A stretch of 64,000 nucleotides of DNA from Chitinophaga pinensis (GCA_945861965.1 CAMAWM010000010.1:996-64995), one strand, 5' to 3'; counted from the stretch's first letter, positions 27,055 to 55,801 are shown. A program made the numbers and translations. Notes: a model not told the origin generated them from the sequence alone.

Positions 27055-28440
27055 ATGGCAAAAGTTAAACCGAGCATACCAAAAGGAACACGAGATTTTG
27101 GTCCGATAGAATTAAAAAAACGCAGCTATATTTTAAACACCATTGAAACGGTATTTAAAAAATACGGCTTTATGCCTATTGAAACGCCATCCATTGAAAA
27201 CCTTTCGACACTTGAAGGAAAGTATGGCGATGAAGGCGATAAATTATTATTTAGAATTTTAAATTCGGGCGATGCCTTTAAAGAAATTCGCGAAAGAAAT
27301 TCGGACGAAAAAATTTCGAATTTCAAATTTCAGAATTCAGATATTAGTGAAAAAGGATTGCGTTACGATTTAACGGTACCATTTGCTCGATATGTTGTTC
27401 AACATCAAAATGAAATTGTGTTTCCATTTAGACGATATCAAATGCAACCCGTTTGGCGTGCCGACAGGCCTCAGAAAAATCGTTATCGAGAATTTTGGCA
27501 ATGCGATGCCGATGTTATTGGAAGCAATAGTTTGTTGAACGAACTGGATTTGATTTTACTATATGACGAAGCGTTTAGAAAATTGCAAATTTCAAAATAC
27601 GAATTGCGAATTAACAACAGAAAAATACTTCAGGGAATTGCAGAAATTATAAAAGGGAAAGAATTTTTGAATTCAATTTCTATTGCCATTGATAAGTTGG
27701 ATAAAATTGGAGAGGATGAAGTTAAAAAAGAATTGATTGAAAATAAATTTACCGAAAACGAATGCACAAATCTTTTTAAGATTTTTAAATTAAATGGAAC
27801 GAATTCCGAAAAACTTTTGTCGCTAAAAAATATTTTATCACAATCGACAGAAGGGTTAAAAGGAATTGAAGAATTAGAATTTGTAATTAATTCACTCAAA
27901 CATTCAAGCACGCAATCGCCAAATCTCAAAATAGATTTAAGCTTAGCGCGTGGATTAGGATATTATACCGGATGTATTTTTGAAGTAACAGCAGGCGAAG
28001 GAACTATAAAAAGCAGCATTGGAGGAGGAGGACGATACGACAATCTTACTGGTATTTTTGGATTGGAAAATATTTCAGGAGTTGGAATTTCATTTGGCTT
28101 AGATAGAATTTACGATGTGATGGACGAGTTGAAATTATTTCCTGAAAACTTAAAAGCAAACAATACAAAATTGATTTTTTGTTATTTTGATGAAGCTTCA
28201 CAAAACTATTGTCTGCAAGCAATAAATAAAGTTCGCAATGGTGGAATTGCATCCGAAATTTATCCTGATATTGTAAAAAAAATTAGCAAGCAATTAGATT
28301 ATGCAAATAAATTAGAAATTCAATTTGCTGCCATTGCAGGCGAAAATGAAATGAAAGAAGGAAAATTTATGTTCAAAGATTTGTTTGCCGGAACACAAGA
28401 ACTTTTGAGTATCGAAAACATAATTGAAAAACTAAAATAA
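27055..28440 (+). CDS. hisS: histidine--tRNA ligase
   Basis: 461 aa with class II aaRS motifs (RYDLTVPFARY, FWQCDADVIG, GGGGRYDNL). Confidence 0.95.
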   Translation: MAKVKPSIPKGTRDFGPIELKKRSYILNTIETVFKKYGFMPIETPSIENLSTLEGKYGDEGDKLLFRILNSGDAFKEIRERNSDEKISNFKFQNSDISEKGLRYDLTVPFARYVVQHQNEIVFPFRRYQMQPVWRADRPQKNRYREFWQCDADVIGSNSLLNELDLILLYDEAFRKLQISKYELRINNRKILQGIAEIIKGKEFLNSISIAIDKLDKIGEDEVKKELIENKFTENECTNLFKIFKLNGTNSEKLLSLKNILSQSTEGLKGIEELEFVINSLKHSSTQSPNLKIDLSLARGLGYYTGCIFEVTAGEGTIKSSIGGGGRYDNLTGIFGLENISGVGISFGLDRIYDVMDELKLFPENLKANNTKLIFCYFDEASQNYCLQAINKVRNGGIASEIYPDIVKKISKQLDYANKLEIQFAAIAGENEMKEGKFMFKDLFAGTQELLSIENIIEKLK

Positions 28441-28474
28441 ATGTCTTTGACTTTAGCCAATCTAAAATCAATTT

Positions 28475-52762: not shown

Positions 52763-52824
52763 CACTCCCAAAATATTAAACTGTTTTTGGGTTTGAGACG
52801 AAGTATTTAGTACGAAAAATATAT

Positions 52825-52896
<72 letters not shown>

Positions 52897-52905
52897 CAAA
52901 AAATA

Positions 52906-52938
52906 AAAGGTCAACAATTCATTTGTTGACCTTTTTTT
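52906..52938 (+). terminator. rho-independent terminator after tRNA-fMet
   Basis: 12-bp stem AAAGGTCAACAA / TTGTTGACCTTT with a 5-nt loop, followed by a T-run. Confidence 0.8.
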
Positions 52939-53225
52939 ATGTGATAGATTGTAAAAGTTAAAAACGCATTCTACCAATTCTGCTTACTGATTGCAAAAGC
53001 CATTATTACTTAGGTTAAATAAAGTTTAATTGTGTTTCACAAAAACTTTTCCCATTTCTGCACATTTCCGAAAAAGTCCTTATTGGCCTAGGGCAAAAAT
53101 TATGAACAGGATTAAGAATCCCGAAATTGTTGTTGATTTCTACTGTTTAAAAATATTCAAATAGCCATATCGCGGAGTTTCGGAATTGTGAATTTCTTGT
53201 AAAATTTTGACAGCTTTCATCAAAT

Positions 53226-53233
53226 TATATTTG
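53226..53233 (+). promoter_or_regulatory. candidate -7 box (TATATTTG) for the DnaB-like/retron cassette
   Basis: Exact TAnnTTTG match, 20 nt upstream of the ATG at 53253. Confidence 0.35.
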
Positions 53234-53252
53234 AATAAAGTTTGAAATCAAA

Positions 53253-54665
53253 ATGCAAGAATTAATTTACCTCGAGCAATCTATTTTAAGAAAAATTATT
53301 GAAAATCCGGAAGCATTTGTCCAAACTGTGCACGAATTAAATGATAGGTATTTCAATAATTTATTTCACCGCAAATTGATTGAAAGAATTCGTGATGTTT
53401 TTAATAAGTATAAAGAAAATATTGATTGTGTTTTGCTGCAAAATGAATTGAGCAAATTTGTAAATAATTTAAACACTACAGAAATTCAGGAAATGGAATT
53501 TGTTTTGATGAAACCATTGATTGACAAACAAAAGGTAAAAGCATATCTTGAATTGTTGGGCGAACATTTTCTAAAAAATCAGCTACAAAAAATTGCTGCT
53601 AACATGTCAGAATTATGTAATTCCAAGTCTTATGTAAACCGAAAGGAAATTGAACCTTTCATCAAAAGGTTGGATGCATTATATACTACAAAATACAGTT
53701 CTGAAATTCATGATATTTCAGATTTGTTTCAAGAGTTTTTGAGCGAAATAAATTCAAATAGTAGACCGTATGTAAAAACAGGTTGGAACAATTTCAATAA
53801 AAATTTTCTGGGCATTTATCGTGGATGTATTACAGTAGTTGGAGCAAGGCCAGGAATTGGAATAACTGCTTTTTTATGTAATTTATTGTTAAACACTGTT
53901 GACGAATCAGAATTAAATTACATGATACAAATTGGCGAAAGTAACAAAGGTATTGTTTCATTAATGATGTCATTGATAAGTGGAATTTCTGTATCAGAAA
54001 TAAATAACAATGAATGCATGTCCGAGAAAAATATATCGCTTTTGAAAGAAGCTGAAACCACCATTCAAAAAATGAATCTTGATATTGTTTTTGTTTCTAC
54101 TTTGAGCTTGTATGAATTGGAAAGTATGATTCGTTCCAAAGCTGTTCAGTACAAAATAAAAATGCTTATTGTAGGAAAAATTCAATACGTGTATTTGGAA
54201 AATAAAAGTAAATACATGACCAGAGATCGTGAAATTGGAATCATAATGCAATCGTTAAAAGCACTGGCTATCGAATTGAATATTTGCTTGATACTTGGTA
54301 GTCATGTTTCTCGGTCAGCTGAAAGGAGGGGTAATCTAATGCCAATATTAAGTGATTTAAGAGATAGCGGTTATATTGAAGAGTTTGCAAGCCTTGTGTT
54401 GTTCCTTAATCGCCCAGAAGCGTATGGAATATTTGAGATGGAAGATGGTTCGTCTAGCAATGAAAAATTAATAGTTACTGTTTCCAAAAACGAAAATGGT
54501 GGTTCGGGCAATTGTTTGCTCAGGTATCAATTATTATCACAAAGTGTTACAGATTTTATAGATGAAAATCCATATGAACCAGAAACTAATTTTTACAACA
54601 AGGATACATTTTTGAAACTTATAAATGATTCAAATGAATTTGAAAACAAAACACCTTTTCAATAA
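53253..54665 (+). CDS. DnaB-family helicase paralog with degenerate ATPase motifs (predicted inactive); putative retron accessory/effector protein
   Basis: 470 aa. There is a DnaB N-terminal-domain pattern (LEQSILRKIIENPEAF...FHRKLIERI). The RecA-like C-domain has GARPGIGITAF in place of GARPxMGKTAF, MLIVGKIQY in place of LIVIDYLQ, and then LKALAIELNICLILGSHVSRSAERRG...LSDLRDSGYIEE. Confidence 0.75.
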   Translation: MQELIYLEQSILRKIIENPEAFVQTVHELNDRYFNNLFHRKLIERIRDVFNKYKENIDCVLLQNELSKFVNNLNTTEIQEMEFVLMKPLIDKQKVKAYLELLGEHFLKNQLQKIAANMSELCNSKSYVNRKEIEPFIKRLDALYTTKYSSEIHDISDLFQEFLSEINSNSRPYVKTGWNNFNKNFLGIYRGCITVVGARPGIGITAFLCNLLLNTVDESELNYMIQIGESNKGIVSLMMSLISGISVSEINNNECMSEKNISLLKEAETTIQKMNLDIVFVSTLSLYELESMIRSKAVQYKIKMLIVGKIQYVYLENKSKYMTRDREIGIIMQSLKALAIELNICLILGSHVSRSAERRGNLMPILSDLRDSGYIEEFASLVLFLNRPEAYGIFEMEDGSSSNEKLIVTVSKNENGGSGNCLLRYQLLSQSVTDFIDENPYEPETNFYNKDTFLKLINDSNEFENKTPFQ

Positions 54666-54671
54666 AATATT

Positions 54672-54826
54672 TGCAGGCAGAGAATAGCATGAGTAATTTA
54701 AAAGTATGAGTCTGAAAATGATAAACGCTTTGGGGCGGTGCACCTGCTGCCTTTTGTTCAATGTGACCAACACTGCAAGGCTAGCGCCTTGCATCGACTT
54801 TGGAATAAGATGTTAAACTGCCTGCA
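54672..54826 (+). ncRNA. putative retron msr/msd non-coding RNA template
   Basis: A 9-bp inverted repeat, TGCAGGCAG (54672-54680) / CTGCCTGCA (54818-54826), brackets the whole intergenic region and ends 15 nt before the RT start. There is an internal 8-bp hairpin TGCAAGGC-TAGC-GCCTTGCA (54774-54793). No ORF is present. Confidence 0.6.
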
Positions 54827-54841
54827 TTTTTTAACGACAAT

Positions 54842-55801
54842 ATGAAATTTTATGGAATAAATTATATTAATGATTTGTGCAGTTTACTTAATTGTACTCG
54901 TAAAGAATTATTTGAATTAATACAAAATAGGCAATACACACAATTTACAATTCCTAAAAAGAAAGGAGGGTTTAGACTTATAGAAAGCCCAGACGAAAAG
55001 TTGAAAAAAACGCAAAGAGGAATAGCGGATTTGTTAAATGAAGATTATGCCAATCACAAACCAAAGTGTGTTCATGGATTCGTAAAACATATTTTCCATG
55101 TGCCATCAACAAAAAATATTGGAATCATAAGCAACGCAAAAAATCATGTAGCGAAGAAATATGTTTGGAATATTGATCTGCAAGATTTCTTTCATTCAAT
55201 TACAATAGTTAAAGTTCGCAATCTATTTATGGGTAATATTTTTAAAATGGAAAGAACCAGTGCTGAAGTATTAGCTCTGTTATGTACGCACAATAAAAAA
55301 TTGGCCGTTGGTTCGCCAAGCTCTCCTGTTTTAAGCAATTTTGTATTGTTGAATTTGGATGAAACCTTGCAACAGATTGCTAATATTAATAATTTAACCT
55401 ATAGCCGATATGCCGATGATCTTACCTTTTCAAGCAATGAAATTATTCAAACCGAAACGATGTCTGAAATTAGAATGAATATTGAATCAAATGGGTTTAA
55501 ACTTAATCCTTTAAAAAACCGATTGAAGAAAAATACTCAAAAACAATCTGTTACGGGTTTAAAAGTAAATGTAAAATTAAATGTAGACAGAAAATTTAAA
55601 AGAAAACTTAGAGCTATAAATCATGATATAGATTGCAATGGAATAGCAGCGGCAACAAAAAAATATTTTAAAATGAAATCAGAAGCAAGCAAAGACGATA
55701 TTTCAAAATTTGTACATGCCTACAATGGATTGAGTAATTATTATAGTTTAGTCGTAAATAATGCAAATCAAAAATTTGAAGGATACGAAACGATGAATTA
55801 A
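54842..55801 (+). CDS. retron-type reverse transcriptase
   Basis: 319 aa with IPKKKGGFRLIESP (RT1), NAKNH (the retron NAxxH; 55133-55147), IDLQDFFHSI (RT3), GSPSSPVLSNF (RT4), YSRYADDLTFS (RT5; YADD at 55409-55420) and QSVTGLKVN (the retron VTG; 55550-55558). Confidence 0.85.
   Translation: MKFYGINYINDLCSLLNCTRKELFELIQNRQYTQFTIPKKKGGFRLIESPDEKLKKTQRGIADLLNEDYANHKPKCVHGFVKHIFHVPSTKNIGIISNAKNHVAKKYVWNIDLQDFFHSITIVKVRNLFMGNIFKMERTSAEVLALLCTHNKKLAVGSPSSPVLSNFVLLNLDETLQQIANINNLTYSRYADDLTFSSNEIIQTETMSEIRMNIESNGFKLNPLKNRLKKNTQKQSVTGLKVNVKLNVDRKFKRKLRAINHDIDCNGIAAATKKYFKMKSEASKDDISKFVHAYNGLSNYYSLVVNNANQKFEGYETMN

Follow-up and report, generated by a model that had tools for sequence, protein, structure and literature searches.

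A 64,000-nucleotide stretch of DNA from Chitinophaga pinensis (GCA_945861965.1, CAMAWM010000010.1:996-64995), called the window in what follows, carries a compact cassette (positions 53,226 to 55,801) in which a DnaB-like protein of 470 residues, a structured RNA of 155 nt and a reverse transcriptase (RT) of 319 residues are encoded one after the other on the same strand. On balance, the cassette is probably a tripartite retron, i.e., a DnaB-family partner, an msr/msd RNA and a stand-alone RT in one operon, that acts in the way proposed below; this overall assessment weighs a well-supported identity against an inferred mechanism. There is little doubt about the identity itself, a retron with a functional partner, and the evidence for it starts from the recurrence of the same arrangement in other genomes.

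A genome scan with an RT profile, in which each species was represented by one genome, returned 80 loci. An open reading frame (ORF) with a DnaB_C domain lies immediately upstream and on the same strand in 24 of the 25 RTs closest to that of the window, the exception beginning 200 nt from the end of its contig, and none of the 55 more distant loci (types XI, XII-like, XIII and I-C according to PADLOC, together with a sister clade) has a DnaB_C domain within 6 kb. Metagenomes were then scanned with a query made up of the RNA only, TTATGA...GGTTGTGTTCC(N)GCAACCC, which gave 93 loci: a DnaB_C ORF ends about 30 nt before the motif in all 84 that extend far enough upstream, and an RT starts 115-175 nt after it in 76 of the 78 that extend far enough downstream. 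The partner protein served as the third anchor. An exhaustive search of 1.84 billion representative proteins found only one cluster, P0241, that is more than 30% identical to the 470-residue protein (44-45%), and P0241 is the RT-linked partner encoded at locus L001 on a JGI metagenome contig; the next gene downstream, after a gap of 182 nt, encodes an RT with 57% identity to that of the window. L001 is flanked by an SNase gene on its upstream side and by a gene for a Por-secretion-tail protein on the other, surroundings unrelated to those in the window. At three further loci (L004, L005 and L007), short proteins of about 350 residues that consist of DnaB_C only are followed by an RT after 170-190 nt, and the genomic contexts of these three loci and L001 are unrelated to one another. 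Matches less than 33% identical to the 470-residue protein include genuine replicative and phage DnaBs, and the other next-best sequence relatives are genuine DnaBs without an RT, which lie beside dnaX/recR or form part of a phage-like replication module.

The two proteins have also diverged together, as the distances between RTs and those between DnaB_C proteins are correlated with a Mantel r of 0.90 over 71 loci, a value reached in none of 2000 permutations, and a neighbour-joining (NJ) tree places the DnaB-linked RTs, that of the window included, in one clade with 92 of 100 bootstraps. Because three independent anchors (RT, partner and RNA) agree, the RT, the RNA and the DnaB_C partner form one unit, found mostly in Bacteroidota, at more than 120 loci and in the fixed order DnaB_C - RNA - RT. 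An initial annotation of the window had paired the DnaB-like gene with the RT as a likely single operon on account of their spacing, and the co-occurrence counts and the Mantel correlation make it a genuine, conserved operon partner. The module was also met at three loci (L011, L017 and L018) titled as metagenome-assembled genomes of Verrucomicrobia, Bifidobacteriaceae or Rhizobium; these titles probably reflect mis-binning or mislabelling and not the true host range.

Reverse transcriptase and RNA element

The RT matches RVT_1 of Pfam with 69 bits, and its closest PADLOC models are RT-Protease_XI (5e-85), RT-TIR_XII (7e-84) and RT-Toprim_I-C (1e-79), in each case along its full length and through just the RT part of these fused proteins. 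The XII and I-C models score within 5-18 bits of the XI model, and the alignment to the latter covers positions 2-305 of 506, while a genuine type XI RT (L045) aligns to positions 2-487. Among the NCBIfam models, retron Ec67 (retron_Ec67_fus, 240 bits), Retron_TIR_antiphage (235) and the St85 RT (191) led, all of them below their curated cut-offs, and they far outscored the non-retron models for group II intron RTs (62 bits) and Drt2 (40 bits). In an alignment of five DnaB-linked RTs, the residues N98, A99 and H102 of the NAxxH motif, Y190 to D193 of YADD, and T238 and G239 of VTG are invariant. The enzyme had been called a retron RT from these three motifs, a call with which both the model scores and the invariant columns agree. 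As judged from its sequence, the RT is best described as a retron-type RT of the XI/XII/I-C supergroup that fits no curated type by its architecture.

The candidate msr/msd RNA is bracketed by a perfect 9-bp inverted repeat, the arms of which are named a1 and a2. The repeat in the window goes beyond chance, for the relatives also pair a1 with a2, using arms of other sequence: an exact search around the DnaB_C-RT spacer found a perfect repeat of 9-14 bp in 24 of 29 loci, with four more recognised by eye that include a wobble or a bulge, and perfect arms of at least 8 bp are present in 78 of 87 motif-anchored metagenome loci, 71 of those 78 with a T-run 3′ of a2. Covariation of the a1/a2 stem and of one internal hairpin was followed in a MAFFT alignment of 27 sequences, with a slid 3′ partner and 500 shuffles as controls; in this alignment the a1 arms of the window and L001 were misaligned through a 17-nt insertion and were scored as unpaired despite their perfect stems. 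Paired cells made up 94.7% of the total, versus 27-58% with the slid partners and with none of the 500 shuffles as high, and 70 cells were changed on both sides, versus 7-19 in the slid controls. Hairpin 2 covaries as well, with GC in 15, AU in 6 and GU in 5 sequences at one pair, and UA in 22 and CG in 5 at another.

From its 5′ end, the family RNA consists of a1, a second helix (AAUUAU/AUAAUU), hairpin 1 (GAGUC...GACUU) and hairpin 2 (GGUUGUG-UUCC-UGCAACC), and then, in its 3′ half, a small variable hairpin, a long msd hairpin that is often conserved apically, AAAGAUAAU, a2 and the T-run. Of these elements, the window RNA retains a1/a2, the second helix, hairpin 2, AAGAUGUUA and the T-run. 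The second helix, which extends the a1/a2 stem, reads TAACAT/ATGTTTA in L001, where a G.U pair has changed to A-U, and AATTAT with ATAATT at the same place in other loci, and the short msd hairpin of the window has CAAGGCTATCGCCTTG as its counterpart in L001. Between the window and L001, the RNA shares long identical blocks, along with compensatory changes, at loci where the flanking proteins are 44-57% identical. RNAfold gave the 155-nt element a free energy of -49.9 kcal/mol (z = -2.6). A covariance model of the msr part of the family (R1), built with the window and L001 left out, was searched with cmsearch against both strands of the 64-kb window, and its top match falls within the element (22.9 bits, E = 0.0014; runner-up E = 0.08). 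The ORF-free region enclosed by an inverted repeat 5′ of the RT, as first read from the sequence of the window, has thus been recovered as a structured RNA both by the a1/a2 covariation and by the top match of R1. The model also matches L030, L032 and L185, and it has no match among the sister-clade, XI, XII(-like), I-C and XIII loci. A second retron at the runner-up itself (28381-28443, minus strand) was considered and rejected: this match runs antisense to the final part of an ORF on the plus strand, and the window contains no further ORF for an RT or a DnaB.

The apex of the long msd hairpin is strongly conserved as ~GCGATGCTCACTnCGTTCCGCTTCTC in eight loci of the genome and protein sets (L007, L012, L017, L021, L022, L024, L026 and L027) and in 34-57 of the 87 metagenome loci, a conservation that suggests sequence-specific recognition of the loop of the multicopy single-stranded DNA (msDNA). 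The window and L001 are without the apical ~GCGATGCTCACTnCGTTCCGCTTCTC and have a short perfect hairpin instead.

The DnaB-like partner

The 470-residue protein matches DnaB_C (139 bits) and the DnaB N-terminal domain (33.6 bits) of Pfam, and its AlphaFold2 (AF2) model, with a mean predicted local distance difference test score (pLDDT) of 83.5, has the complete DnaB fold. Foldseek superposed this model on full-length V. cholerae DnaB with template modelling (TM) scores of 0.77-0.78 and a root mean square deviation of 3.6-4.0 over about 445 columns, taking in the N-terminal domain, the helical hairpin, the linker helix and the RecA-like C-terminal domain. The motifs were read residue by residue against G. 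stearothermophilus DnaB (2r6a). In this alignment, Walker A changes from AARPSVGKT to GARPGIGIT, with Ile in place of Lys at residue 204, Walker B from IVIDYLQ to LIVGKIQ, with Gly in place of Asp, and SQLSR to SHVSR, with His in place of Gln; the catalytic Glu and the Arg finger are retained. The lost Walker A and B residues confirm the term pseudo-helicase under which the protein was first annotated. With TIGR00665, the equivalog model of replicative DnaB, the protein scored 180.6 bits against a cut-off of 385.25. Because it falls below this cut-off and its Walker A and B motifs are dead, the protein is taken to be a DnaB paralogue, predicted to be unable to hydrolyse NTP normally, and not the replicative helicase of the host. 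It has in common with the replicative DnaBs of E. coli, G. stearothermophilus and V. cholerae the two-domain fold, the Arg finger, the catalytic Glu and the RecA-like core motifs, and it differs from them in the missing Walker A Lys and Walker B Asp, in its score below the equivalog cut-off, in being encoded in a retron operon and in a 45-residue C-terminal extension ending in ...TPF(Q) that real DnaBs do not have.

Most of the relatives are built differently. Among 94 RT-linked partners, GK[TS] is kept in the Walker A motif of 85, the median length is 350 residues and the N-terminal domain is absent; full length combined with Ile or Val at the position of the Walker A Lys is seen in the window species and L001 only. 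The NJ tree joins these two in a basal branch with L013, the RT of which lies at a contig edge with the upstream region missing. The window locus sits on a rare basal branch with a single metagenomic relative, in which the full DnaB architecture is present and the ATPase motifs have been lost. Elsewhere, the Walker A Lys is replaced by Arg in L185 and by Thr in P0249, and an ORF in L131 also has Thr (GTT) at this position and seems to be disrupted; leaving L131 out of the count, the Lys was lost three separate times (window with L001, L185, and P0249). Some ten strain variants, like L001, have both the partner and the RT as unbroken ORFs. Because L001, which is 44-57% identical and lies in another context, has likewise lost the Walker A Lys and kept intact ORFs, the loss of ATPase function is old and the module has long outlived it; the window type is both old and maintained. 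Set against a sister strain, the partner gene has a dN/dS of 0.45 and the RT gene one of 0.17, and the value for the adjacent gene of an outer membrane protein (OMP) is 0.05.

L185 (4937-6924 of IMGVR_UViG_3300005144_000001) is also the sole locus of the viral collection that has the module, with a 284-residue DnaB_C protein carrying GRT in Walker A, a1/a2 arms CCACTGTCC/GGACAGTGG, hairpin 2 and an RT of 320 residues. Carriage of the module by phages was considered and rejected, as the RNA motif has no match in IMG/VR and a DnaB_C ORF lies upstream in just one of 80 viral RT relatives.

A feature that runs through the family is the C-terminus of the partner, which consists of an acidic stretch followed by PF in 72 of 88 RT-linked DnaB_C proteins at the RNA-anchored loci and in 18 of 28 loci of the first set (the window with the genome- and protein-anchored loci); ...RLDELDDSPF, ...LDEIDNPF and ...EEDDAPF are examples. 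Genuine DnaBs are without such a tail, and among the 1314 ORFs of at least 250 residues in all fetched loci, 80 end in PF, mostly RT-linked DnaB_C proteins. The tail of the single-stranded DNA-binding protein (SSB) ends in ...DDDIPF, and the tails of T7 gp4, a DnaB-family helicase-primase that docks with its tail on T7 polymerase, and of gp2.5 are likewise acidic and Phe-terminated. The RT-linked DnaB_C proteins resemble these tails in the acidic stretch and the terminal Phe; the tail of the window protein, encoded at 54642-54665, differs from those of SSB and T7 gp4 in being weakly acidic (NEFENKTPFQ) and in having an extra terminal Gln. No description of the acidic PF tail of RT-linked DnaB_C proteins was found in the literature searched. 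The extra Gln varies between strains, as window positions 54660-54668, compared with 1813-1821 of L002, show that sister strains end in ...KTPF-TAA and that CAA-TAA in the window adds the residue; the members of the cluster are split 5:5 between 469 and 470 residues. The partners at L007 and L177 end in ...DLEISLS and ...LDLEISRS instead of ...PF.

Known systems, proposed action and rival explanations

A full-text search of the literature for retrons together with DnaB or DnaB_C gave one relevant paper, the preprint of Toro 2026 (bioRxiv 10.64898/2026.05.14.725207), dated May 2026. This computational study described TXI_noncan_h, 29 loci of type-XI-like RTs without a protease in Bacillota and Bacteroidota that are largely host-associated, with a DnaB_C ORF beside the RT in 69% of cases, mostly at ‘+1’, and with a double stem-loop RNA flanked by a1/a2 22-104 bp upstream of the RT; the ‘+1 downstream’ offsets follow genomic coordinates. 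CRISPR-Cas was found near 17% of the loci of the DnaB_C lineage, no WYL proteins were reported there, and in Table S2 some RTs of aquatic Bacteroidota adjacent to DnaB_C are entered as low-confidence I-C3. Going by the published description, the family treated here, the window locus included, agrees with TXI_noncan_h in its protease-less XI-like RT, in the separate, adjacent DnaB_C ORF and in its Bacteroidota hosts. Its a1/a2-flanked RNA is compatible with the double stem-loop of that lineage in architecture and in distance, as hairpin 2 of the window ends 88 nt before the ATG of the RT, inside the range of 22-104 bp. The family differs in comprising more than 120 loci, in which DnaB_C is strictly upstream in the sense of transcription and on the same strand, and in the retained N-terminal domain, dead ATPase, short msd and family-wide ...PF tail, none of which are in Toro's account. 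The DnaB_C retron family is larger and more regular than reported there, because of the number of loci, the strictly upstream partner and the I-C3 labels given in Table S2 to DnaB_C-adjacent RTs. The novelty that the initial annotation had raised for the pairing, subject to a database check, is weakened: the pairing was flagged computationally by Toro 2026 and is already in the literature, though uncurated, and it is absent from PADLOC 2.0 and from Mestre 2020, in which neither DnaB nor a helicase is mentioned. The literature searched contains no description of the full-length branch with its dead ATPase, of the fixed order, of the co-evolution or of the ...PF tail.

In Mestre 2020, type XI consists of an RT fused to a trypsin-like protease, and no ncRNA could be recognised for it. 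RT-Protease_XI models are the closest PADLOC match to the window RT, which differs from canonical type XI in having no protease domain and in scoring nearly as well with XII and I-C, and the DnaB_C family differs from it in its well-supported ncRNA and in an effector that is a separate upstream gene; the RNA of the DnaB_C family fills a gap in the type XI neighbourhood, where no ncRNA had been recognised. Types I-C (Ec67-family RT-Toprim) and XII (RT-TIR) belong to the same RT supergroup and follow the same logic of an RT plus an effector. Their effector, however, is fused to the RT, while the candidate effector in the window is the separate DnaB-like gene; the window RT stays under the curated cut-offs of 450 and 600 and has neither Toprim nor TIR. 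The sister clade (L035, L036, L046, L048, L054, L059, L065, L067, L078, L079 and L082), made up of stand-alone RTs from Bacteroidota with lengths of about 345 residues, matches PADLOC XII/XI best, has no DnaB_C neighbour and is not matched by the family RNA model, and it may correspond to Toro's WYL-associated TXI_C2like lineage. At L007 (7603-8499), a member of the DnaB_C family, a convergent WYL/WCX gene lies just 3′ of the RT.

Retrons are both a genome-editing toolbox and a model of toxin-antitoxin-like immunity, in which new effector classes have revealed new killing modes. By analogy with them, an anti-phage role of the cassette is likely. The RT would bind the msr hairpins, prime from the 2′-OH of a G beside the a1/a2 stem and copy the short msd into msDNA, and the RT-msDNA complex would then bind the DnaB-like protein and keep it inactive. 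Because ring-forming superfamily 4 (SF4) proteins bind single-stranded DNA, msDNA would be a natural ligand of the partner, and its conserved acidic ...PF tip might anchor it to the RT or to proteins recognising SSB tails. The partner might be released when a phage factor modifies or degrades the msDNA or competes for it, and once free it might halt DNA replication and so lead to abortive infection. In most relatives, the effector would be an active helicase core without the N-terminal domain. The window partner, on the other hand, would have to act stoichiometrically because ATP-driven unwinding is impossible with a dead ATPase, e.g., by forming mixed hexamers or by poisoning or titrating the DnaB of the host or the phage, the loader or the primase. 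Interference with replication as the act of the effector is put forward tentatively and may well prove wrong. The proposal in its most specific form is rather doubtful; it holds that the partner is a replication-directed effector coupled to the RT via the ...PF-COOH tip, with its ring on msDNA, and that its release by a phage poisons or decoys helicase loading. The tip would dock, in the manner of the T7 gp4 or SSB tail, on the RT or on SSB-client proteins, and the ATPase-dead full-length branch would then point to a stoichiometric act. If true, a DnaB-family effector would tie retron immunity straight to the replication fork, and a pseudo-helicase as immune weapon or bait would be without a described parallel in retrons and in defence systems of other kinds. 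The family, with its more than 120 loci, covarying RNA, co-evolving proteins and SSB-like tail, is a well-delimited experimental target, and it offers a natural comparison of ATPase-competent short forms with the ATPase-dead full-length form.

Several observations weigh against a defensive tripartite retron in the window. In the literature found, no defence phenotype, msDNA or toxicity has been reported for any family member, and the data at hand leave the partner as a toxin, a sensor or a structural subunit. PADLOC 2.0, which has no model for such a partner, gave no match for the DnaB-like protein, and searches of Rfam, by E-value for the region and by gathering score for the window, returned no retron msr and only two tRNAs. 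The covariance-model match of the window RNA is modest at 22.9 bits, and its msd hairpin is atypically short, without the apical loop conserved in many relatives. The dN/dS of the partner is fairly high at 0.45, a value that comes from just 26 differences, and the extra Gln after ...PF could blunt the tail if a free Phe carboxylate matters. No defence gene adjoins the cassette in the window, and no empty site was found, the neighbourhoods of the nearest other Era homologues (78-79% identity) being unrelated.

Other explanations of the cassette were weighed against the proposed retron. The partner keeps all structural modules of DnaB (N-terminal domain, linker helix, C-terminal domain and Arg finger) and has lost catalysis, which is the usual signature of a decoy, and the loss of the Walker A Lys in three lineages implies that the ATPase is dispensable for some members. 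Both points suit a role as decoy or sensor, in which the dead full-length copy of DnaB would be a bait that mimics the host helicase and triggers the system when it is bound by phage loaders (lambda-P-like) or inhibitors. Such a role is nevertheless unlikely: a cassette of two proteins leaves no separate effector, RT-msDNA alone is not known to be toxic in characterised retrons, and most relatives, without the N-terminal domain and with GK[TS] kept, are unlike a decoy of full-length DnaB. It is quite unlikely that msDNA and the helicase-like protein serve instead a host or selfish function, such as the replication or recombination of a small mobile element, or regulation. This would sit well with the housekeeping genes around the cassette and with the lack of a demonstrated defence phenotype in the family; yet no integrase, transposase or replication-initiator gene accompanies the pair, the genomic contexts are mutually unrelated, the module is nearly absent from viral contigs, CRISPR-Cas lies near 17% of the DnaB_C-lineage loci of Toro 2026, and a WYL gene is found beside L007. 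The functions established elsewhere also speak for defence, since all experimentally characterised retrons with an accessory gene are, to our knowledge, anti-phage systems of the toxin-antitoxin kind.

That the window copy is a decaying remnant, i.e., a degenerating and non-functional form of an active DnaB_C retron, is very unlikely. The loss of Walker A and B, the dN/dS of the partner, higher than those of the RT and the OMP gene, the stop codon that is TAA or CAA depending on the strain, with its extra terminal Gln, and the short msd without the conserved loop of the family all point that way. They are countered by the intact ORFs of some ten strain variants and of the diverged L001, by the identical blocks and compensatory changes that the RNA of the window shares with that of L001, and by dN/dS values below 1. 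A coincidence, in which the 470-residue protein would be a host replicative or prophage DnaB that happens to lie beside an orphan RT, has practically no probability left. Genuine replicative and phage DnaBs do appear among the matches below 33% identity; however, the adjacency as coincidence is refuted by the low TIGR00665 score, by the absent Walker A Lys and Walker B Asp, by the RT-linked L001 protein as the sole relative above 30% among 1.84 billion representatives, and by the family-wide co-occurrence and co-evolution of RT and DnaB_C.

Layout and surroundings of the cassette

The elements of the locus are listed in the table. The genes and the RNA element all lie on the plus strand, and the order of the locus is tRNA-fMet, terminator, DnaB-like ORF, RNA element and RT ORF, with 317 non-coding bases between the terminator and the DnaB-like ORF and 176 between the two ORFs.

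Table. Features of the cassette and its upstream flank, in positions of the window.
Feature	Position	Strand	Basis and remarks
tRNA-Met(CAT)	52825-52897	+	cmscan
Terminator: 13-bp hairpin, then T-run	52905-52935		
Candidate Bacteroidetes-type promoter	53206..53233	+	TTTG 53206-53209 and TATATTTG 53226-53233, 19 nt 5′ of DnaB-like ATG; read from sequence
DnaB-like ORF, 470 aa, full-length fold, C-terminal ...NKTPFQ; putative effector	53253..54665	+	Pfam, AF2, alignment
Candidate msr/msd ncRNA, 155 nt, then T6 run	54672..54826	+	9-bp perfect inverted repeat, fold, covariance model
a1 arm TGCAGGCAG	54672-54680	+	Equivalent arms covary in 27 loci, double changes at all 10 pairs
Second helix extending a1/a2 stem: TAGCAT and ATGTTA	54685-54690 and 54810-54815	+	Minimum free energy (MFE) fold
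msr-like region	54688-54754	+	Family covariance model match
Hairpin 2, GGGGCGGT-GCACCT-GCTGCCTT	54732-54753	+	Covaries across family
Likely msd stem, perfect 8-bp hairpin with 4-nt loop, TGCAAGGC-TAGC-GCCTTGCA	54774-54793	+	MFE and centroid folds
a2 arm CTGCCTGCA, then TTTTTT	54818-54826	+	Inverted repeat of a1
Reverse TRANSCRIPTASE (RT), stand-alone retron-type, 319 aa	54842..55801	+	RVT_1, PADLOC, NCBIfam
NAKNH, aa 98-102	55133-55147	+	
YADD, aa 190-193	55409-55420	+	
VTG, aa 237-239	55550-55558	+	

The elements and coordinates of the initial annotation proved to be exact, base for base, and so did its gaps of 6 nt from the stop of the DnaB-like ORF to a1 and of 15 nt from a2 to the ATG of the RT. 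The genes it had named as neighbours (era, OMPs and the menE/menC region) were found as era, DUF6089/OMP beta-barrels, an AMP-binding protein and an MR_MLE protein. The tRNA has the hallmarks of an initiator in the cmscan alignment, namely the C1.A72 mismatch and an anticodon stem closed by three G-C pairs. The pair of TTTG and TATATTTG is a candidate promoter, which matches the Bacteroidetes consensus of TTTG at -33 and TAnnTTTG at -7. A scan for sigma-70 promoters gave 14 sites, versus 16 expected by chance, and is uninformative for Bacteroidota.

The cassette occupies the same site in every near-identical strain, and no att-like direct repeats were found to flank it. An exact 12-nt direct repeat, ATATCGCGGAGT, is present at 52821-52832 and 53167-53178, with 0 expected by chance. 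Its first copy is composed of 4 nt of flank and the first 8 nt of tRNA-fMet, and the second lies 75 nt before the ATG of the DnaB-like ORF; the repeat, which shows no similarity past the 12 nt, flanks the tRNA and not the cassette, and it could be a recombination scar. Adjacency to a tRNA was rejected as a trait of the family, as a tRNA gene was met in just one of 58 other loci, and there it does not adjoin the cassette. At the other end, the stop codon of the RT shares 4 nt (55798-55801) with that of the convergent DUF6089 OMP gene, and there is therefore no space for a terminator between the two genes.

The region had also been described as more AT-rich than its flanks. Its GC content is indeed lower, at 30.4% against 34.5% for the window, and the difference is mild, corresponding to the 6th percentile of equal-sized windows. 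Within the cassette, the RNA spacer (54666-54841) has the highest GC content (40.9%), followed by the DnaB-like gene (30.3%) and the RT (29.2%).

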